From Gammaproteobacteria bacterium (GTDB lineage Bacteria > Pseudomonadota > Gammaproteobacteria > Eutrophobiales > Eutrophobiaceae), in the NCBI GenBank assembly GCA_965198875.1, contig CBDAPU010000001.1, positions 495,134-559,133 on the forward strand: DNA of 64,000 bases, written 5' to 3'. Shown piece by piece: positions 4,354 through 58,067 of this stretch. Numbering within the stretch: the stretch's first letter is position 1; every line of letters begins with the position of its first letter. The notes below the pieces were generated by a model. That model saw only the letters and a program-made list of their open reading frames with translations. It searched no databases and was not told the DNA's origin. Both the position numbers and the translations under genes were made by a program.

Positions 4354-4893
4354 GTGCAAGGGGTTGATATTGGTATTTTGGTGGTGTTGCTTCTACCGGC
4401 CTTGACGGGCCTGATTTACGGGTTTCTTAACATTGTCTTCTCCATCACCGCCTGGGTATTGGCGCTGGGGATCAGTATTACATTCGGCCCGGGCTTATCG
4501 CCGCTGTTGACTGATTATATCGACTCGATACTGCTCAGGGATATTGCCGCTTTTGCCAGTATCTTCATCATCAGCTTGATGGTATTGACCGCTCTCGGCT
4601 ATTTTATCGTCAAATTGCTTGGCAGAGCAGGCCTCACCGCCGCCGACAGACTGCTCGGTTTTTTCTTTGGAATTGGGCTTGGGGGGGCTATCATAACAGT
4701 CATGATTTTCCTGGCTGGATTTACCGCATTGACGGAGAAACCCTGGTGGCGGAGCTCGGTACTGATCGAGCCGTTTCAACATATTTGCATCTGGGGACAA
4801 CGGTTTCTACCCGACAATGTCGCCGCCTATCACCGCTATGGGCAGAGGGCCCCTGAACGTGAAGCGGAGCAATCCGCATCAGAGACCCCATAA
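4354..4893 (+). CDS. cvpA: colicin V production / CvpA-family membrane protein
   Basis: 179 aa with 4 predicted TM segments and a GTG start. Lies immediately upstream of purF, as in E. coli. Confidence 0.7.
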
Positions 4894-4922
4894 ATCCCCT
4901 GGCTGATCAGATCGATAAACAC

Positions 4923-6440
4923 ATGTGCGGGATCATCGGCATTGTCGCTAAATCGAATGTAAACCAGGCTATATTTGATGGTTTAACCATACTTCAGCAT
5001 CGCGGACAGGACGCCGCCGGTATGGTGACCTGTGACGGCACCCGCCTTTACCTGCGTAAAAATAACGGACTGGTGCGTGATGTTTTTCAGACCCGTCACA
5101 TGCTGAATTTGAAGGGCAAGATGGGGATCGGGCAGGTGCGTTACCCGACCGCTGGTTGCTCATCCTCCGCCGAAGCACAGCCTTTTTACGTCAATTCGCC
5201 CTACGGGATTGTGCTCGCACACAATGGCAATCTCACCAATGGCGAACAACTCAAGGCAGATCTGATGAGTGATGAGCTACGGCATATCAATACCGGATCC
5301 GACTCTGAGATCTTGTTAAACATATTTGCTTTCGAGTTGCAGCGAATGGGAAAGCTGCGGGGAGCATTAACCCCGGATGATATTTTTGCGGCGATCGGCC
5401 AATTACACCGGCGTTGCCGGGGAGGCTTTGCTGTTGTCGCCCTGATATCCGGTGTCGGTATCGTTGGTTTTCGGGATCAATACGGTATTCGACCGATCAT
5501 CTTTGGTGAACGCACGACTGATTCAGGCAAGGAGTTTATCATTGCCTCGGAGAGCGTGGCCATAGATGCACTGGATTTTGTGGTGAGGCGTGACATAGCG
5601 CCGGGAGAGGCGCTCTTCATCAATGAGCAGGGTGAGTCCTATACGAAACAATGCGCTGAAAACCCGCAATATGCGCCTTGCATATTTGAGCATGTCTATC
5701 TCGCCAGACCCGACTCGGTGATTGACAATATTTCCGTCTATAAAACCCGTTTGCGGATGGGGGAGTTCCTGGCGACAAAGATATTAAAACTAAGACCGGA
5801 TCACGATATTGATGTGGTCATACCGATACCGGATACCGGCCGCACGTCCGCCTTGCCGCTGGCCTTTGAATTAGGCGTAAAATACCGGGAGGGGTTTATT
5901 AAAAATCGTTATATACCGCGCACATTCATTATGCCGGGGCAGAGTATCCGGAAAAAATCCGTCAGACAGAAATTGAACGCCATTGAGCTGGAATTCAAAG
6001 ATAAAAACGTGCTCCTGGTTGATGACTCCATCGTCCGTGGCACCACCTCATGCGAGATTATTCAAATGGCCAGGGAAGCGGGCGCCAGGAAGGTGTATTT
6101 TGCCTCAGCGGCGCCGCCGGTGTTGTATCCGAACGTGTACGGGATCGATATCCCCACGCCCGCCGAGTTGATCGCATCCGGCAAGACGGAGCGGGAAGTA
6201 TGTGATGCCATCGGCGCTGACTGGCTGATATATCAGGAAGTGGATGATCTAATTAACGCCGCAAGTGAAGGCAACCCACAAATACAACAGTTTGATACCT
6301 CCTGTTTTACGGGAGAGTATGTTACCGGAGATATAAGCGAAGACTACTTGCAACAGGTATCTGTACTACGCAGTGATGCGGCGAAACAGGGCGGTGGCGT
6401 GTTTGATGAGTCGATGATCGATTTATCTAACAGCGAATAA
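4923..6440 (+). CDS. purF: amidophosphoribosyltransferase
   Basis: MCGIIGIV N-terminal nucleophile Cys, a PRPP-binding [13 protein letters not shown] motif, 505 aa. Confidence 0.95.
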
Positions 6441-50162: not shown

Positions 50163-51650
50163 ATGACGAGAGATAACGACAATAACATCATCAAACAACG
50201 CCGTGCCCAGCTTCAGGCGCTGCGTGAACATGGACTGGCCTACCCAAACGACTTCAGACGTGATGTGCTGGCGGCCGAGATCCATGAGCGCTACGGCAAC
50301 GAAGAGAAAGAAGCGCTGGCGCAGGTGGCGGAAAATGTCTCGCTTGCCGGGCGCATGATGAGCCGTCGCATCATGGGCAAAGCATCATTTGCACATATCC
50401 AGGACATGTCGGGCCGCATCCAGCTCTTCATCAAGCGAGATGCTGTCTCTGAGAGTAGCTATGCGGATTTTAAGAGATGGGATATCGGCGATCTCATTGG
50501 CGCAACTGGTGCTGTGTTTAAGACGAAGACCGGGGAGTTATCCATACAGGTTCACGCTATCAGGTTGCTTGCTAAGTCATTAAGACCACTGCCGGAGAAA
50601 TTTCATGGTCTTGCCGATCAGGAAACCCGCTACCGTCAACGCTATCTGGATCTGCTCACCAATGAGCAGACGAGAGAGATGTTTCAAACGCGCTCCCGTG
50701 TGATTCATCACATCAGGGATTATTTAGCCACGTCCGGTTTTCTGGAGGTGGAAACACCCATGATGCACGCCATACCCGGCGGCGCCACGGCTAGACCTTT
50801 TATCACCCACCATAACGCACTGGATATGGATCTGTATTTGCGTATTGCGCCGGAGTTGTATTTGAAAAGGTTGCTGATCGGCGGGCTGGAAAAAGTCTTT
50901 GAAATCAATCGAAGTTTCCGAAATGAAGGTCTCTCGCCCAGGCATAACCCGGAGTTCACCATGCTTGAGTTTTACTGGGCCTATGTAGACTATGAAGACC
51001 TGATGGTGTTCACGGAGGACTTGCTGCGCTCATTGGTCTCAAGGATAAAAGGGGGCACGATAATCCAATATCAGGGAGAGACCTGTGATGTAAGCCGACC
51101 GTTTCCTCGTATGACGATGCTGGAAGCCGTACTCCACTACAACCGGGATCTATCGGCAGCGGATTTAACGGATAGAGACAGGCTGGCCGATATAGTCCAT
51201 AAAATGAACCTGGATGTTAAAGATAGTGATGGCCTCGGCAAACTCCAGCTTGCGCTTTTCGAGAAGACGGTTGAGCGGGATCTTAAAGAACCCACGTTTA
51301 TCACCCGTTATCCGGCGGAAGTCTCCCCCTTATCAAGACGTAACGATGCTGATACGGATATGACTGATCGGTTCGAGTTTTTCATCGGCGGCAGGGAGAT
51401 CGCCAATGGTTTCTCCGAGTTGAATGATCCTGATGATCAGGCGGCGCGTTTTCGCATACAGGCTGAAGAGAAAGCCGCTGGTGATGAGGCGGCCATGCAC
51501 TATGATCACGATTACATTACCGCCCTGGAATACGGCATGCCGCCTGCCGCTGGAGAGGGGATCGGCATAGACAGGCTGGTGATGTTGCTCACTGATGCGC
51601 CCTCCATTCGAGACGTCATATTATTCCCGCATATGAAAAACAGGGAATAA
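50163..51650 (+). CDS. lysS: lysine--tRNA ligase (class II)
   Basis: FRNEGLSPRHNPEFTMLEFY motif 2 region. 495 aa. Follows prfB as in E. coli. Confidence 0.95.
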   Translation: MTRDNDNNIIKQRRAQLQALREHGLAYPNDFRRDVLAAEIHERYGNEEKEALAQVAENVSLAGRMMSRRIMGKASFAHIQDMSGRIQLFIKRDAVSESSYADFKRWDIGDLIGATGAVFKTKTGELSIQVHAIRLLAKSLRPLPEKFHGLADQETRYRQRYLDLLTNEQTREMFQTRSRVIHHIRDYLATSGFLEVETPMMHAIPGGATARPFITHHNALDMDLYLRIAPELYLKRLLIGGLEKVFEINRSFRNEGLSPRHNPEFTMLEFYWAYVDYEDLMVFTEDLLRSLVSRIKGGTIIQYQGETCDVSRPFPRMTMLEAVLHYNRDLSAADLTDRDRLADIVHKMNLDVKDSDGLGKLQLALFEKTVERDLKEPTFITRYPAEVSPLSRRNDADTDMTDRFEFFIGGREIANGFSELNDPDDQAARFRIQAEEKAAGDEAAMHYDHDYITALEYGMPPAAGEGIGIDRLVMLLTDAPSIRDVILFPHMKNRE

Positions 51651-51891
51651 TGTCTTGATATGGAAAGCAAATTGCCTTGATGACATGCCGGGTCTGGCCA
51701 CTGAAATGCGGGAGTATCGCCCGCTAATTGCCGTTAATCGAGAACTTTCCCATTTCCATACAGTCCATAACATGTGAATAAAACGGGGCGGTGATCATTC
51801 AGCATGATATACTCCCCGGGCTCTTTGTAGCGCAACAACACGTCACTCATGACGAACTCTATGATCAACCAATTTAAGGAGGAACCCTTAG

Positions 51892-52308
51892 ATGTCGAAG
51901 AAAACAACTCTAAAACCAATAGCCGCCGCCCTGGGCGCGACTTTCGCCGTTTCTCTGGCCGCCAGCCCTGTTGCTAACGCTGCCGAGAATCCTTTTAGCA
52001 TGACCGAGCTGTCCAATGGCGGTTACATGGTGGCGGGCAATCATGGTGAGGGCAAATGCGGTGAAGGCAGGTGCGGCGGTGAGCACGAAAGTGGTGAGAA
52101 GGAAAGCGAAGGCAAATGTGGCGAAGGCAGGTGCGGCCATGAGAAGGAAAGCGAAGAGAAATGCGACGATGAGGAGGAAGGCGAAGAGAAATGCGACGAT
52201 GAGAAGGAAAGCGAAGGCAAGTGCGGCGAAGGCAAGTGCGGTGGTGAGCACGAAAGTGGTGAGAAAGACAGTGAAGGGAAATGCGGCGAAGGCAAGTGCG
52301 GTAGTTAA
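51892..52308 (+). CDS. secreted Cys-repeat RiPP precursor peptide (EGKCGEG(K/R)CG repeats; HvfA/bufferin-like candidate metallophore)
   Basis: AAGGAGG lies 8 nt upstream. Sec signal MSKKTTLKPIAAALGATFAVSLAASPVANA|AE. The 87-residue C-terminal region uses only G/E/K/C/R/H/S/D and has 10 Cys. It sits directly upstream of the DUF692 and DUF2063 genes. Confidence 0.75.
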   Translation: MSKKTTLKPIAAALGATFAVSLAASPVANAAENPFSMTELSNGGYMVAGNHGEGKCGEGRCGGEHESGEKESEGKCGEGRCGHEKESEEKCDDEEEGEEKCDDEKESEGKCGEGKCGGEHESGEKDSEGKCGEGKCGS

Positions 52309-52326
52309 ATCACTTCAATCCCTACC

Positions 52327-53193
52327 ATGTCTGAGAAATACCCTGTACAAGGTGCAGGTTTAGGTCTGCGGCGAGCCTTTATCGGCTCGCTCGTAGAGCC
52401 ACTCCCCGAGCAGGTGGATTTTATGGAAGTGGCCCCGGAGAACTGGATTGATGTGGGGGGTCGATTCGGTCGCCAGTTCCATGCCATCGCAGAGAAAATG
52501 CCCATCGTCTGTCACGGTCTGTCGTTAAATCTTGGCGGGCCCGCCCCCCTTGATGAGGCGTTTCTACACAAAGTCAGACAATTTCTCGATAAACACCGTG
52601 TTCGTTGTTATAGCGAGCATTTGAGTTATTGTGCGGATGATGGTCACTTATATGACTTGATGCCGATACCCTTCACAGATGAAGCCGTGCATTATGTCGC
52701 TGACAGGGTAAGGCGTACCCAGGACATCATCGGCAGGCGCATAGCCATTGAGAATGTGTCATATTACGCAGCGCCCGGCCAGGAGATGGATGAGATAGCG
52801 TTCATCCATCATGTGTTGGATGAGGCGGACTGCGATTTGTTGCTGGATATTAACAATATCTATGTGAATAGCATTAACCATCGCTATGATGCAGAGGCTT
52901 ATCTACAGGCCTTGCCGGCGGAGCGCATCGCCTACGCCCACGTTGCCGGTCACTATATGGAAGCTGAGGACTTGCGTGTTGATACCCATGGCGCTGACGT
53001 CATCGATCCGGTCTGGCGGTTGCTTGAGCTCGCCTATGAGCATTTTGGCGTGTTTCCAACACTGCTGGAACGAGACTTTAATATCCCCCCCCTGCCTGAA
53101 TTACTTGGCGAAGTAGATACCATCCATCACCTTCAGTTAAGGCAGGAAAGTCATTCTGATGAACCTGTCCGGCGATACGAACAAGTCCTTTAG
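52327..53193 (+). CDS. DUF692 / MNIO-family (MbnB-like) non-haem iron peptide-modifying enzyme
   Basis: GAGLGLRR...[10 protein letters not shown]...HGLSLNLGG...YSEHLSY...IENVSYY...[11 protein letters not shown]...AHVAGH...VDTHG...LERDFNIPP. This is the ordered motif string I associate with DUF692 TIM-barrel proteins. Confidence 0.85.
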
Positions 53194-53935
53194 GGATATT
53201 CAATATCAATTCACCCGGCACATGCGTGATCCGGTGAATGCGCCTGCGCCCGCTGATGTTGAAGACAGGCGTATGGCCATCTACCGGGATCTGCTTTATC
53301 GAAATGTAGAAGGTTTCCTGGCCAACAGCTTCCCGGTATTGAGGAAGGTTTTAACCGATGATCAATGGCATACCCTGATCCGGCATTATCTTAAACATCA
53401 TCAGTCTCACACCCCCCTGTTCCCTAAAATGCCCCAGGAGTTTTTGCAGTATCTACAGGACGAACGAGGCGATGATGAGGAGGTGTATCCTTTTATCTGC
53501 GAATTGGCGCATTATGAGTGGGTGGAGCTGGCGCTATCCATTGACAGCCGAGAGATCAGATCGGCCGGGGTCGATGAGGGAGGCGATCTGCTATCCGGCG
53601 TCCCGATACTGAACGAGCTGGCCTGGCCGCTCGCCTATGAATACCCGGTGCATCGGATCAGCCCTGATTATTTACCGGGCGCCAAGCCCGAACAACCCGT
53701 CTATTTAATCGTCTATCGGAACCGCCGTGATGAAGTGGGTTTTACCGAGCTCAATCCCGTTTCAGCCCGGCTGGTCGATTGCTTAAAGGAGAATAAAAGC
53801 AGATCAGGTCGGGACATTCTTCTCGGCATAGCAAACGAGATGTCACACCCTGAACCCGATGTGGTGATAAAAGGCGGACATGAAACCCTCAGGGAGATGC
53901 GGGAGAAGCAGATCATACTTGGAATAAAACAATAA
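53159..53935 (+). CDS. DUF2063-domain partner protein of the MNIO enzyme (RiPP maturation/recognition subunit)
   Basis: The N-terminus [15 protein letters not shown]...[28 protein letters not shown]...W resembles DUF2063 openings. Overlaps the DUF692 gene by 35 nt. Confidence 0.72.
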
Positions 53936-54410
53936 CCCCATCCGTGCTCTGGTAAACCACTGCAGGCACAGAAACTTCTCGTCATGATCACGCCACTTTT
54001 CTGGCGAGATGCTTTTGCTGGATGCACAATGTGAGAATGCGTATAGCGGCATAACTGCGCCAGCGGCTGATATGCAATCAACCATGTAAAGAAGGCCGCC
54101 CATGTAACACGCAGGAGCTTGTCCGGTAATTACACATGGCGGATGATATTGCCGATATGGGTGTGAGCATTTGGTGGGCGAGCCTCTCGTCAGTATTGTC
54201 GCCCTGTGCCGGGATGCGTTGCCTTTTAATGGTGCATGAGGCTTTATCATGATCAGCCACATTCGAGAGGCGCTGATAAACCTAAGTGTTTTGCTACCAT
54301 TGGGATAATGCTCCCCGCAAGTGAAAAAAGACAGGGCCCATGGGCAATTTTATAAAGCCCGTTGTCTGATATACTGGGCGAGTTCAAACGCATCAGGGGG
54401 CAAGGGGAAT

Positions 54411-55025
54411 ATGATTGATCTCGCCAATAAAGCACAGGGCATACTCGATAAAATCAGGGAGAGTCTGGATTTTATTGGCTCCGCTTTGCTTAGATTGTAT
54501 CTGGCCCCGGTATTTTGGGTGGCCGGCAACAACAAATGGAACCCCCTGGATGAGGACAGCTCACTTGATTCAACCATTGCCTGGTTCGGTAGTACTGAAG
54601 GCGGGCTGGGCCTGCCTTTTCCAACGATAAATGCCTATATGGCTTGGGGCGCAGAGTATTTTGGCGCAATCATTCTGGCCCTGGGGCTGGCTACGAGATG
54701 GGTTTGCATCCCCTTGATGATCACCATGGTGGTTGCCGCTACGACAGTACACATTGGGCATGGCTGGCAGGCAATCCACGATCCCGTCAGTCCCTATGCC
54801 TCAGCTAACGTCGGGGAGGCTATCGACAGATTATCAGAGGCGAGGGCCATCCTTAGAGAGCACGGTGATTATCACCACCTAACGGAGCACGGTAGCTTTG
54901 TCATATCCAACAACGGTATAGAATGGGCGGCCACCTATTTCATTATGTTAGCGGCGCTGTTCTTCCTGGGGGGCGGTCGCTTTATCAGCCTGGATTATTG
55001 GATTAAGAAAAAATTTGGCCCATGA
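54411..55025 (+). CDS. DoxX-family membrane protein
   Basis: LLRLYLAPVFWVAGNNKW...YFGAIILALGLATRWVCIPLMITMVVAATTVH has the DoxX-like helix pattern. ATG 54411 has AAGGGGA upstream; the tracked ORF opens at GTG 54321. Confidence 0.65.
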   Translation: MIDLANKAQGILDKIRESLDFIGSALLRLYLAPVFWVAGNNKWNPLDEDSSLDSTIAWFGSTEGGLGLPFPTINAYMAWGAEYFGAIILALGLATRWVCIPLMITMVVAATTVHIGHGWQAIHDPVSPYASANVGEAIDRLSEARAILREHGDYHHLTEHGSFVISNNGIEWAATYFIMLAALFFLGGGRFISLDYWIKKKFGP

Positions 55026-55075
55026 AACCGGTGATGGGTAAAATGCGCTAGTCGCGTCCTTCGCGCACTGTCATC

Positions 55076-56317
55076 ATGCTCACTCCCGAAGGCGTCCTTT
55101 TCTTTTTTGTGTTGTTGCTACTGGCGGCGCTAATGGAACCGATCGCCAATCAGCATAAAATCCCCGTCAGTGTTGTGCTGGTTTTACTGGGGTTCATAGG
55201 CTCGGAGATCACCACAGGCGTCTTTGGTATTGATACCGGGATCCGCTGGGATAATTTCCAGTTGATCATCTTTCATATTTTTATCCCCATCATTATTTTC
55301 TCCGCCGCACTGAAACTGAATATCCAGTCAATATGGCAAAACGCCATACCGATATTTTTTATCGCTTTCCCGTTTATGTGGATCTCAACGGCGATAACGG
55401 CGACGATACTGTACTTTGGCATAGGGCATGCCACGGGTTTTCCCTGGATGGTGGCGTTACTCACCGGCGCTTTATTGGCGGCGACCGCCCCCTCTGCAAT
55501 CATCTCCGTATTAAAGAGACAGCCTGTCCCTGAGAAATTACTCATATTGCTAGATGGCGAAGGTCTGTTTAATGACGTGGGGGCGATAATATTATTCATG
55601 CTGTTGATCTCACTTACCCTGGCGGGCAGTGACAATATAGATCCCCAGACCATCGCCAGTAATTTTGGCATTGCACTGTTTGGCGGCGTTCTGGTTGGCC
55701 TCATTTCGGGTGCATTGGCCGGTTTATTCTTAAAGTTGTTGCCTGATCCCCATTTAAAGACGTTGATCACCCTGTTATCGGCTTACGGGGTTTATATCAT
55801 CGCCGATGATTTCCTGCATGTCTCCGCTGTCATTGCGGTATTAACCGCAGGGCTCGTTATAAGGCAAACCGGAGAATGGTTTAATGTCAGCTCGGATTTC
55901 ACCGACAGATTCTGGGGGTTTGCCGAACACATTACCGACTCCCTGATCTTTTTATTGGCGGGCGTCACCATCACCCTGTCAATGTTCTCCAATCAGTGGA
56001 AAGCCATGTTGATCGGCATCGTTGCTGTTTTAATAGCAAGGGGCACGCTATTTTTTATGTTGATGCCTTTACTGGGTCTATTCTCGAGGGCATGTAAAAT
56101 GCCGTTAAAACACCAGGCGGTATTAACCTGGGGCGGTGTGCGTGGCACGGTGACGCTCGCCCTTGCCCTGTCTTTGCCATTAGAGCTGGACGCCTGGTAT
56201 ACGGTGCAATCCATCGCCTACGGTGTGGTGATCTTCGCCCTCTTTATACAAACCACAACGATGGGGGCACTGATACGAAAACTGGATCTATCCTGGAAAA
56301 ACCCACCAGTCATCTAG
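55076..56317 (+). CDS. cation:proton antiporter (CPA1/NhaP-like), membrane domain only
   Basis: 413 aa with ~11-12 TM helices and Na+/H+ exchanger-like segments (LLDGEGLFNDVGAIILF, TWGGVRGTVTLALALSLP). Confidence 0.75.
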   Translation: MLTPEGVLFFFVLLLLAALMEPIANQHKIPVSVVLVLLGFIGSEITTGVFGIDTGIRWDNFQLIIFHIFIPIIIFSAALKLNIQSIWQNAIPIFFIAFPFMWISTAITATILYFGIGHATGFPWMVALLTGALLAATAPSAIISVLKRQPVPEKLLILLDGEGLFNDVGAIILFMLLISLTLAGSDNIDPQTIASNFGIALFGGVLVGLISGALAGLFLKLLPDPHLKTLITLLSAYGVYIIADDFLHVSAVIAVLTAGLVIRQTGEWFNVSSDFTDRFWGFAEHITDSLIFLLAGVTITLSMFSNQWKAMLIGIVAVLIARGTLFFMLMPLLGLFSRACKMPLKHQAVLTWGGVRGTVTLALALSLPLELDAWYTVQSIAYGVVIFALFIQTTTMGALIRKLDLSWKNPPVI

Positions 56318-56552
56318 CCCATCCGCCAGCGCATGTCCACGGAATGTGCTTGACGTTATTCAGGCATAACGATGACTGCCTCAACAGAGTAGCCATGCAC
56401 CTGGCCTCCGCTCACAATGGCTTGATGATCTGCTTGAGGCGGGCGCATCGCTTCTCCTTCGCTCTCTTTATCTTCGCCAACGGCTTTTCAAGCAAAGGCA
56501 CTTGGCAATGGCGAGCAAAGAAGGTGAGTAAAACCCCTGTTATGGACGAAGA

Positions 56553-56819
56553 CTAGCGGCGTTTTTTGCCTTTTCTACCCCGTGGCTCCTGGAAATTAAC
56601 CCGAAGATACTTGCCGTTATACATCTTGCCGTTAAGACCATCGATTGCCGCCCTGGCCTCATGCCCTTCCATATCCACAAAGGCGAACCCCTTGCATTGG
56701 CCGGAGAACACGTCCGTTGCAATTTGTATGCCCCTCACCCTTCCATACTCTGAAAAGAGCTCGGTTAAGGCGGCTTCGGTTGTATCAGACGGCAGACTGC
56801 CTACGAACATTCTTTTCAA
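56553..56819 (-). CDS. RRM-type (RNP-1/RNP-2) RNA-binding protein with a basic tail
   Basis: RNP-2 MFVGSL, RNP-1 KGFAFVDM, C-terminal RGRKGKKRR. 88 aa. Confidence 0.82.
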   Translation of the reverse strand: MKRMFVGSLPSDTTEAALTELFSEYGRVRGIQIATDVFSGQCKGFAFVDMEGHEARAAIDGLNGKMYNGKYLRVNFQEPRGRKGKKRR

Positions 56820-56899
56820 GACGATACCTTCTCCCGAGTCTTGGGGGGTTTTAATAAATATGGATGCGCCCTATGCCAGGGGAGGCATAACGAAAAACG

Positions 56900-57103
56900 C
56901 TATGCTATCCTCACGTTGGCAGCCTGTAGACCTTTATCGCTTGTTTGTGTTTCAAAGGAAACACTCTGGCCTTCATTCAGCGTCTTAAAGCCTTCCGCCT
57001 GGATGGCGGAGAAATGCACAAAAACATCAGGGCTGCCGTCATCCGGCGTTATAAAGCCATAGCCCTTGGATTCATTAAACCACTTAACAGTACCTGTCGC
57101 CAT
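56900..57103 (-). CDS. cspA: cold-shock protein, CspA family
   Basis: [34 protein letters not shown]. 67 aa. Confidence 0.95.
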
Positions 57104-57599
57104 GTATCACCTCTCATAATATAATGTATGTGTTTGTTGCAAATTCAAAAAGGTAATACAGGAAAAACCGGGTGGAATTACTGAATTGACCAGAGAAATT
57201 GTGCAAACTCCCTATAGTCTGTACGAAAATAAACGAATTGGCAACACTTATAAGTCCCTCCAATGCAACCACCCCAATGAAACCGCCATGCTATCGCTTT
57301 GCCGGGGACGCGGAAACCCAGGTGGGATTTTCTGCAAAACGCCTGTTTTTCGGCGACTCAACCCCTGTGCGGGGTGAGACATGTCTGTGTCAAGCGGTGG
57401 TCTGATCCGCTACTATTAGCGGGTATCAATGCTGCTTTCTCATCGGGCTGTCATTGATATCGGGTTTCGGGTATAAAATACGCCGTCATTTTGCTGTCGC
57501 AGCATTTACCTGCTCAGCACGTAAAACCCTTGCAGGCATAATGATACTTTGCGTTACCTGTCTCTTTAATGAGTAAATCGACAAAACAAAGAGCGCCTT

Positions 57600-58067
57600 A
57601 TGAGCAATCGGGAAATAACAGAAGCGGACATGTTAGAGCGTATATTTACGATGCAAACCGATCTCAATAATTACGTCTTTAGAAAAAATAATATCAAATG
57701 CCCGTCCGGGGGCGTCTTAACCATGGAGGGCATATTCTCCGCTGTGAATAACGGCGCTCTCAAGGTCAATGAGTTGCCCAACGCCTGGCTGGCAAATTAT
57801 GCAAGAGCGATGCGGGAAGAGGTGGCCGAGCTCGATGAGGCGTTGCTTTGGAAATGGTGGAGCCGGGATGAGATCGATATGCAGAACATCAGAGTGGAAC
57901 TTATCGATATACTGCATTTTCTTGTATCCGCCATGATCTGTGCGGGGCTGACGCCTGAAAAAGTCTATGATATTTATCGTCAAAAACATGCGGTTAATCT
58001 CAGCAGGCAGGATAGGGGTTACAGCAAGGCGACAAAAACGGAAGATGACAATAAACACATCAGTTGA
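57600..58067 (+). CDS. all-alpha NTP pyrophosphohydrolase, dimeric-dUTPase-like
   Basis: 155 aa. The pattern MQTDLN...MREEVAELDEAL.WKWW...ELIDILHFLVS resembles the dimeric dUTPase / MazG-like fold family. Assignment is from memory. Confidence 0.5.
   Translation: MSNREITEADMLERIFTMQTDLNNYVFRKNNIKCPSGGVLTMEGIFSAVNNGALKVNELPNAWLANYARAMREEVAELDEALLWKWWSRDEIDMQNIRVELIDILHFLVSAMICAGLTPEKVYDIYRQKHAVNLSRQDRGYSKATKTEDDNKHIS

Follow-up and report, generated by a model that had tools for sequence, protein, structure and literature searches.

A Probable hvf/fon-Type Captophorin Cluster with an Acidic EGKCG-Repeat Precursor in a Gammaproteobacterial Genome

Introduction

The class name captophorin stands for copper-associated peptidic thiooxazole metallophore, and three such peptides, oxazolin, fontiphorin, and gonophorin, have been characterised (PMC11252979, PMC13097082). 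Here, we describe a chromosomal cluster that, judged by these homologues, is very probably of the hvf/fon type and encodes an EGKCG-repeat member of the same class. It lies on a 64,000-nucleotide stretch of a Gammaproteobacteria bacterium assembly (GCA_965198875.1, contig CBDAPU010000001.1, positions 495,134 to 559,133, forward strand; hereafter "the window") and comprises the precursor gene hvfA, the multinuclear non-haem iron oxidase (MNIO) gene hvfB, its DUF2063 partner hvfC, and the DoxX-family gene hvfX.

In Haemophilus influenzae, HvfBC modifies six Cys residues in the three AEGKCGEGKCG repeats of HvfA (Manley et al. 2024); the modified, Sec-exported product is oxazolin, which binds Cu(I), and cleavage of its signal peptide has been shown experimentally (PMC11252979). 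Fontiphorin carries seven modifications and binds up to four Cu, and the paper that described it also characterised gonophorin, introduced the class name, and reassigned all three products to 5-thiooxazole (PMC13097082), a conclusion with which the original oxazolin authors concur (10.64898/2026.07.17.739211). Both HvfBC and FonBC add one -4 Da modification per EGKCG Cys, giving products that bind Cu(I); in homologues, the 5-thiooxazole has its absorption maximum at about 302-305 nm. The active HvfB cofactor is a mixed-valent diiron cluster that forms only with HvfC.

A 2025 survey catalogued about 2,000 precursors of this "Buf_EGKCG/oxazolin" family (PMC12452194), whose clusters combine genes for a ribosomally synthesised and post-translationally modified peptide (RiPP), an MNIO, a DUF2063 protein, and a DoxX protein in varied orders; the DoxX-family HvfX is counted as frequent, not obligatory, and is present here. 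An earlier note on this DNA, made from its letters alone, had described the EGKCG class as lacking a determined structure, modification pattern, or role, a view that the oxazolin (PMC11252979) and the fontiphorin and gonophorin (PMC13097082) work has made outdated. The cluster is an ordinary member of a known family, not an unexplored system, and as a cluster it adds little to the roughly 2,000 precursors catalogued and the three characterised.

Gene Layout and Family Assignment

Four open reading frames on the forward strand lie in the interval 51892-55025, as the earlier note had proposed:

51892 to 52308, forward strand: hvfA, precursor peptide, 138 aa
52327 to 53193, forward strand: hvfB, MNIO (DUF692), 288 aa
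53159 to 53935, forward strand: hvfC, DUF2063/NGO1945_C partner, PME1, carrying a RiPP recognition element, 258 aa
54411 to 55025, forward strand: hvfX, DoxX-family membrane protein of the hvf cluster

The sequence itself shows the hvfB stop codon TAG at 53191-53193 and the hvfC ATG at 53159, which gives the 35-nt overlap that the note had reported. The longest open reading frame of hvfX begins with a GTG at 54321; homologue alignments begin at the ATG at 54411, and therefore the interval between hvfC and hvfX is 53936-54410, or 475 nt. Relatives are cited below by locus (L) or protein (P) number, and the genome set consists of 80 loci picked by HvfB similarity. The order recJ-prfB-lysS-hvfABC is kept in relatives, and the G+C content of the locus is unremarkable; horizontal transfer was considered and is ruled against by this G+C content and by the conserved position downstream of lysS.

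The family assignments made in the note hold. HvfB matches PF05114 (MbnB_TglH_ChrH; 348 bits), HvfC matches both PF09836 and PF22106 (DUF2063 and NGO1945_C), and HvfX matches PF07681 (DoxX; 67.9 bits), so that each of the three Pfam families expected from the letters (PF05114, PF09836, and PF07681) was found. The HvfA/B/C/X names that the note had given also proved correct: HvfB scores 444.7 against NCBIfam NF003818 (cut-off 360), HvfC 305.2 against NF050145 (cut-off 142), and HvfX 211.1 against NF050144 (cut-off 80). The precursor passes the HvfA-family domain model NF050137 (KCGExKCG_twice) with 49.7 against a cut-off of 19.5, and has no match in Pfam, DUF2282 included. HvfB falls below the BufB equivalog NF050167 (269.4, cut-off 310), the MbnB equivalog TIGR04159 (47.9, cut-off 325), and the ApyH and ChrH equivalogs of NCBIfam.

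Two neighbouring families of product were weighed on this basis. Bufferins (Buf1/DUF2282 and Buf2, of Caulobacter and others) are likewise Sec-exported, Cu-binding RiPPs modified by MNIO and DUF2063 proteins; they carry thiooxazoles, and their clusters often have DoxX neighbours and extracytoplasmic function (ECF) control (PMC11626156, PMC12452194). They differ from the system described here in precursor fold and family, and membership was rejected since there is neither a DUF2282 nor a Buf_6/12Cys precursor and HvfB stays under the BufB cut-off. Methanobactin biosynthesis (MbnABC) shares an MNIO, a mixed-valent diiron site, and a four-electron Cys oxidation that yields a Cu(I) ligand, but it uses the partner MbnC and a leader peptide, it yields an oxazolone/thioamide, and copper starvation induces the pathway. 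Given the DUF2063 partner, the Sec signal on the precursor, and the low TIGR04159 score, this membership was rejected as well.

Integrity of the Modifying Enzyme and Its Partners

All of the ordered DUF692 motifs listed in the earlier note are present in HvfB: HG (H63), SEHL (H98), ENVS (E142), DINN (D174/N177), HVAGH (H205/H209), DTH (D219/H221), and ERD (E248/D250). The protein aligns with the diiron structure PDB 3BWW (E = 3e-74), metal-ligand residues included, and its N177, D219, and H221 align to the site-3 ligands N175, D242, and H244 of H. influenzae HvfB, which mutagenesis has shown to be essential. It also retains R15/R16 and the ERDF motif, through which FonB selects what may stand on either side of the Cys to be modified (PMC13097082). 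Compared with about 95 relatives, no highly conserved position is changed in HvfB (0/88), HvfC (0/30), or HvfX (0/43). To judge from their sequences, the core genes hvfA, hvfB, hvfC, and hvfX look intact and functional.

Anatomy and Variation of the Precursor

Residues 1-30 of HvfA (nt 51892-51981) have the features of a Sec signal peptide: the n-region (MSKKTTLKP) is basic, the hydrophobic core reaches a Kyte-Doolittle hydropathy of 2.1, and the junction reads ANA-AE. The call rests on these rule-of-thumb features and on homology to the signal peptide of H. influenzae HvfA, whose cleavage has been shown by experiment; the region is conserved across homologues. A conserved N-region, AENPFSMTELSNGGYMVA, follows (nt 51982-52041), and the repeat region then occupies residues 51-138, a stretch composed of E, G, K, C, S, D, H, and R alone, with 10 Cys. 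The Sec signal peptide and the Cys-rich C-terminal region of restricted composition that had been noticed in the letters are thus both confirmed. The repeats run in the order of two EGKCGEGRCG double motifs, an EEKCDDE...EEKCDDE pair, and two EGKCGEGKCG double motifs, separated by acidic, His-containing linkers. The predicted mature peptide has 108 aa, an isoelectric point of about 4.5, and a net charge of about -19, against neutral to basic values for the characterised peptides (FonA about +2, H. influenzae HvfA about +6); strongly acidic EGKCG variants are themselves not among the characterised peptides.

The two EEKCDDE cysteines, C91 and C101, are non-canonical and arise from a short duplication:

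52132 to 52216, forward strand: tandem duplication in hvfA, 30-nt unit, 2.8 copies (Tandem Repeats Finder; period 30, 89% matches, score 142)

There are 829 precursor homologues, and among the 120 closest, which are 78-177 aa long with 4-11 Cys, the signal peptide and N-region are highly conserved and the repeat array is hypervariable. None of these 120 has a KCD(D/E) motif; single central non-CG cysteines do recur among them. Net charges of homologues range from -27 to +7 (median -3), so that -19 is extreme, not unique. The nearest precursor relative, P0001 on L161, is identical in 50 of its first 52 residues, yet its linkers are basic (GDKKK, net +4) where those here are acidic (EHESGEKES, net -19). 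Such a pair, with the same N-part and different linkers, suggests that repeat and linker chemistry turns over rapidly.

Two further observations concern the arrays. Those of the window (52042-52305) and L161 (2278-2610) are fully different, although the genomes are 81% identical in DNA. In addition, an EF-hand calcium-binding insert lies between EGKCG repeats in eight homologues (P0012, P0026, P0043, P0049, P0057, P0072, P0079, and P0091); EF-hand/EGKCG chimaeras have already been described (PMC12452194).

Comparison with Fontiphorin and Oxazolin

The closest characterised system is the fontiphorin cluster, fonABC, of Fontimonas thermophila. HvfB is 65% identical to its Fon counterpart, against 42% for H. 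influenzae and 48% for Neisseria gonorrhoeae; the corresponding values for HvfC are 46%, 24%, and 25% (the sequences compared were machine-read from the supplement of PMC13097082). HvfA is 42% identical to FonA, the N-region ...GYMVA... included, and resembles H. influenzae HvfA in the repeats only. Both the window precursor and FonA have this N-region and EGKCGEGKCG double motifs, neither has an N-terminal Cys pair, and the window HvfB retains the substrate-gating residues of FonB. The two systems differ in that fon is a minimal A-B-C cluster without DoxX, whereas the window also has hvfX, an exchanger gene, and the relic of a further gene, and in that FonA has 7 Cys and is about neutral, whereas the window precursor is strongly acidic and has 10, two of them in EEKCDDE.

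The oxazolin cluster of nontypeable H. influenzae, hvfXABC, encodes the same four protein families, with a Sec signal and AEGKCGEGKCG repeats in the precursor. Its gene order is X-A-B-C, in contrast to A-B-C-(relic)-X in the window. H. influenzae HvfA has 95 aa, three double motifs, and an N-terminal C38-C43 disulfide that is absent from the window precursor, and a loop of about 23 residues in H. influenzae HvfB is missing from the window HvfB.

Predicted Modification and Mode of Action

The substrate rules of FonBC allow a prediction of which cysteines would be modified. FonBC accepts R in place of K before the Cys, demands Gly or Ala after it, and leaves a Cys unprocessed if the next residue is charged (PMC13097082). 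Under these rules, modification is predicted for eight Cys, those of the four EGKCGEG(K/R)CG double motifs, and not for all ten; C91 and C101, each followed by Asp, are likely spared and present as thiols or as a disulfide. The earlier note's proposal that many Cys are converted would not extend to these two under the FonBC rules. A natural substrate that mixes canonical and Cys-Asp sites offers a cheap test of the rules, which predict a shift of -32 Da where modification of all ten Cys would mean -40 Da.

By analogy with the characterised homologues, we propose that HvfA is translated with its Sec signal peptide and that HvfB and HvfC act on it in the cytoplasm, using a mixed-valent Fe(II)/Fe(III) cofactor and O2. 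Each E-G-K/R-C-G Cys would be oxidised by four electrons to a 5-thiooxazole. The product would then be exported by Sec and cleaved after ANA (residue 30), releasing the 108-aa acidic mature peptide. In the periplasm, pairs of thiooxazoles would bind Cu(I) at about one Cu per double motif, or about four in all. The role would most likely be copper sequestration under envelope, oxidative, or metal stress, probably through an ECF-sigma promoter. This is in line with the note's own proposal of a Sec-exported, MNIO-modified periplasmic metallophore, which fits the published biology of the homologues. The acidic, His-bearing linkers and the two spare Cys might alter metal binding relative to the basic characterised members, and a strongly acidic natural variant would be useful for studying linker charge against Cu-induced aggregation and stoichiometry.

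Upstream Signals

The following elements were identified upstream of hvfA and hvfX:

51743 to 51767, forward strand: ECF-sigma-type promoter-like motif AACTT-N16-GTCCA, about 125-150 nt upstream of hvfA
51805 to 51813, forward strand: predicted extended -10-like element, TGATATACT, upstream of hvfA
51876 to 51882, forward strand: ribosome-binding site AAGGAGG, 9 nt before the hvfA ATG
54367 to 54375, forward strand: second copy of TGATATACT, 36-44 nt upstream of the hvfX ATG

The AACTT-N16-GTCCA motif has its sole match in the window at this site. Its 16-nt spacing is fixed in the window, in L002-L005, and in L161, where the flanking intergenic DNA is not alignable by blastn. Of 51 hvfA upstream regions, 6 contain the motif, whereas shuffles gave 0.18 on average. 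The window, L001-L005, and L161 all share the extended -10-like element, as TGnTATA(A/C)T; how far it lies from the ECF-like motif varies. The AGGAGG core of the ribosome-binding site, whose strength had been remarked on before, is conserved in relatives. In Haemophilus and Neisseria, hvf genes belong to RpoE2/SigE (ECF) regulons together with msrAB and are induced by hypochlorous acid (HOCl); putative ECF-sigma and extended -10 promoters upstream of hvfA would fit RpoE2/SigE control.

The TGATATACT 9-mer has two copies in the window, both on the forward strand and each before an hvf gene, and one of 100 shuffles had at least two matches. It was found upstream of hvfX in 0 of 40 relatives, by which its reading as a conserved hvfX promoter was rejected; the copy at 54367-54375 may be a lineage-specific promoter acquired after a deletion, or chance. 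A generic scan for sigma-70 promoters and terminators gave background numbers (5 found against 6.2 expected, and 8 against 5.0); none of the terminator candidates between hvfC and hvfX was convincing.

Several points weigh against the reading of the locus set out above, and we gather them here. The precursor scores 66.8 against the HvfA equivalog NF050188, below its cut-off of 95. This equivalog is also missed by four of five tested relatives of the environmental clade (38-66 bits; the fifth passes with 98.6), and the miss concerns equivalog-level naming, not family membership. The prediction of eight modified Cys out of ten transfers the specificity of FonB to an enzyme that is only 65% identical. 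The putative ECF promoter is a conserved motif only, and no ECF sigma or anti-sigma gene was found among the 20 window open reading frames scanned. Finally, any physiological role for EGKCG captophorins is as yet provisional in the literature.

A Relic Gene and an Accessory Module

Two features on the downstream side of hvfC bear on the history of the cluster:

53936 to 54410, forward strand: relic of a glutamate-synthase-like (GltS-like, PF01645) gene, six collinear patches against L161
55076 to 56317, forward strand: CPA1 cation/proton exchanger gene (PF00999), with Ala at the position of the ATDP Asp

The nearest relative, L161, shows 81% DNA identity to the window from prfB through hvfC, ending exactly at the hvfC stop codon, after which L161 has a PF01645 glutamate-synthase-like gene (L161 4251-5873, against window 53936-54410). 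Six collinear patches of the interval (53945-58, 54042-80, 54084-131, 54187-97, 54249-82, and 54286-356) match this gene and span the L161 region from ribosome-binding site and start to stop; the start codon is lost and about 1.15 kb is deleted. Chained together, the patches reach 184 bits; 200 dinucleotide-preserving shuffles averaged 5.6 and went no higher than 45. The interval is an eroded GltS-like gene relic, not a spacer; the 475-nt length given in the earlier note stands. No intact open reading frame, Rfam family, or repeat was found in it, and a second precursor or other small open reading frame was sought in six-frame translation and rejected. The relic is detectable only against the 81%-identical L161: blastn of the interval against the 80 genome loci gave nothing, and tblastn with distant GltS-like proteins gave noise only.

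In L161 itself, the GltS-like gene (4366-5843) is called as two open reading frames of 123 aa and 369 aa. Past ...FFAMD, the first no longer follows the conserved sequence. This suggests a frameshift, whether from a pseudogene or from faulty assembly, and the GltS-like gene may be decaying throughout the lineage.

Elsewhere, the GltS-like protein is a membrane-anchored flavin mononucleotide (FMN) protein of about 505 aa (loci L010, L012-L017, L022, L032, L048, L053, L064, L079, and L087-L108). Its gene is in the hvf neighbourhood in 13 of the 80 genome loci and lies at most 400 nt from hvfX in 26 of 31 informative loci; gene orders vary, with A-GltS-X-B-C, B-C-X-GltS, and A-B-C-GltS-X-exchanger all represented. 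Many of the metagenome loci chosen by exchanger similarity read lysS-hvfA-B-C-GltS-like-hvfX-exchanger.

The gene downstream of hvfX matches PF00999 (Na_H_Exchanger) with 169.5 bits, and its product is at most 55% identical to any protein in a 5.8-billion-sequence database. Its metagenome relatives were recovered with a three-sequence alignment as query, whereas the exchanger sequence by itself retrieved none; the subfamily loci are L016, L048, L081-L108, and L153. In L016 and L048 the exchanger follows hvfX and is embedded inside the cluster. Among the metagenome loci, all 15 informative relatives with at least 46% identity have hvfX directly upstream of the exchanger; at lower identity, 4/20 and 5/22 do. 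These proportions, and the 26 of 31 given above, are biased because the metagenome loci were selected by exchanger similarity.

The window exchanger keeps the fold and the ND motif (N166-D167), and the ion-site Asp of the T-D-P motif that marks a CPA1 antiporter is missing: codon 138 (55487-55489) is GCC, Ala, in place of the Asp of ATDP. That Asp is present in 64/64 aligned relatives and 101/101 pattern-matched database relatives, and in PaNhaP the substitution D130S at the equivalent position abolishes transport. The D138A change could mean that function is lost or altered, or it could be a sequencing error at one base.

Of the five closest genome relatives, four (L001, L002, L004, and L005) keep recJ-prfB-lysS-hvfABC but have no hvfX or exchanger within 6 kb downstream, and L003 and L006 retain hvfX; accessory genes are repeatedly lost in the clade. 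We suggest that the cluster formerly had an accessory module of GltS-like FMN protein, HvfX, and CPA1 exchanger; in the window the first gene is now only a relic and the exchanger is without its ion-site Asp. More broadly, and tentatively, since we would sooner doubt than assert it, an uncultured marine/sediment clade of Gammaproteobacteria may have a conserved module of membrane-anchored GltS-like FMN oxidoreductase, HvfX, and a dedicated CPA1 exchanger. The two MNIO and captophorin survey papers searched make no mention of a GltS-like (PF01645) or exchanger (PF00999) partner, an absence from those texts that is not proof of novelty.

If true, this would point to a redox or ion-coupled role for DoxX, for example in keeping thiooxazole thiolates or copper reduced, or in ion or pH handling. 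The window would then be a natural dissection, with the FMN gene deleted, the exchanger Asp lost, and HvfX fully conserved, and the linkage of hvfX with the GltS-like FMN protein and the CPA1 exchanger could help to assign a function to DoxX/HvfX.

Alternative Explanations

The linkage of hvfX with an FMN oxidoreductase in 26 of the 31 informative relatives can also be read as a sign that the main job of the system is envelope defence against oxidants or hypochlorite, with the thiolates serving as a redox buffer or scavenger, possibly together with DoxX, and with copper secondary. The HOCl-induced ECF (RpoE2/SigE) regulon that the cluster shares with msrAB in H. influenzae and Neisseria points the same way, as do the ECF-like motif conserved upstream of hvfA and the link between DoxX proteins and thiol redox homeostasis in Mycobacterium. 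Direct biochemistry so far, however, is for Cu(I) binding only, and this genome no longer has the gene for the FMN protein; since copper is itself a cause of oxidative stress, the two roles are not cleanly separable. We consider oxidant defence as the principal function unlikely, and copper sequestration the better account.

There is a smaller chance, which we would put at distinctly unlikely, that the peptide acts as a chalkophore, released like methanobactin to acquire copper when it is scarce, and does not serve as a copper sink in the periplasm. This possibility was raised by the oxazolin authors (PMC11252979), the peptide would carry high-affinity Cu(I) ligands, and no copper-efflux or copper-resistance genes were found among the window open reading frames scanned. 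Against this, bufferins protect from copper stress, the 108-aa Sec-exported peptide has no adjoining outer-membrane exporter or TonB-dependent importer, and HvfB does not reach the MbnB equivalog (47.9 against 325). Periplasmic sequestration again remains our preferred reading.

The erosion seen downstream of hvfC raises the question of whether decay extends to the whole locus, with no functional product made any longer. The GltS-like gene is a relic, the exchanger has lost a residue that is essential in PaNhaP, and the closest genomes (L001, L002, L004, and L005) are without hvfX and the exchanger downstream of hvfC. The four core genes, however, are uninterrupted, with 0/161 highly conserved positions changed, and the ribosome-binding site and promoter-like motifs are conserved; moreover, the characterised fon cluster works with A, B, and C alone (PMC13097082). 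General decay is therefore very improbable, and a functional captophorin cluster is the more natural conclusion.

We give almost no credence to the methanobactin-like oxazolone/thioamide pair that the earlier note had proposed: it was the original 2024 assignment for oxazolin (PMC11252979) and survives in NCBIfam names, but it has been superseded by the reassignment to 5-thiooxazole by two independent groups, on the evidence of alkylation-assisted heteronuclear multiple bond correlation and of an absorption maximum near 305 nm against 340/390 nm for methanobactin, and HvfB groups with the bufferin-type MNIOs that have DUF2063 partners, not with MbnB.

Other Features of the Region

An Rfam scan of 51000-57600 gave no match in the cluster or in the interval between hvfC and hvfX. 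Further downstream, on the reverse strand, 56864-57238 resembles the cspA thermoregulator RF01766 with 56.2 bits, below the gathering score of 78. This match overlaps a cold-shock protein gene; the genes there lie at 56900-57103 and 56553-56819, both on the reverse strand, and a gene for an RRM-domain RNA-binding protein adjoins the cold-shock protein gene on the same strand.

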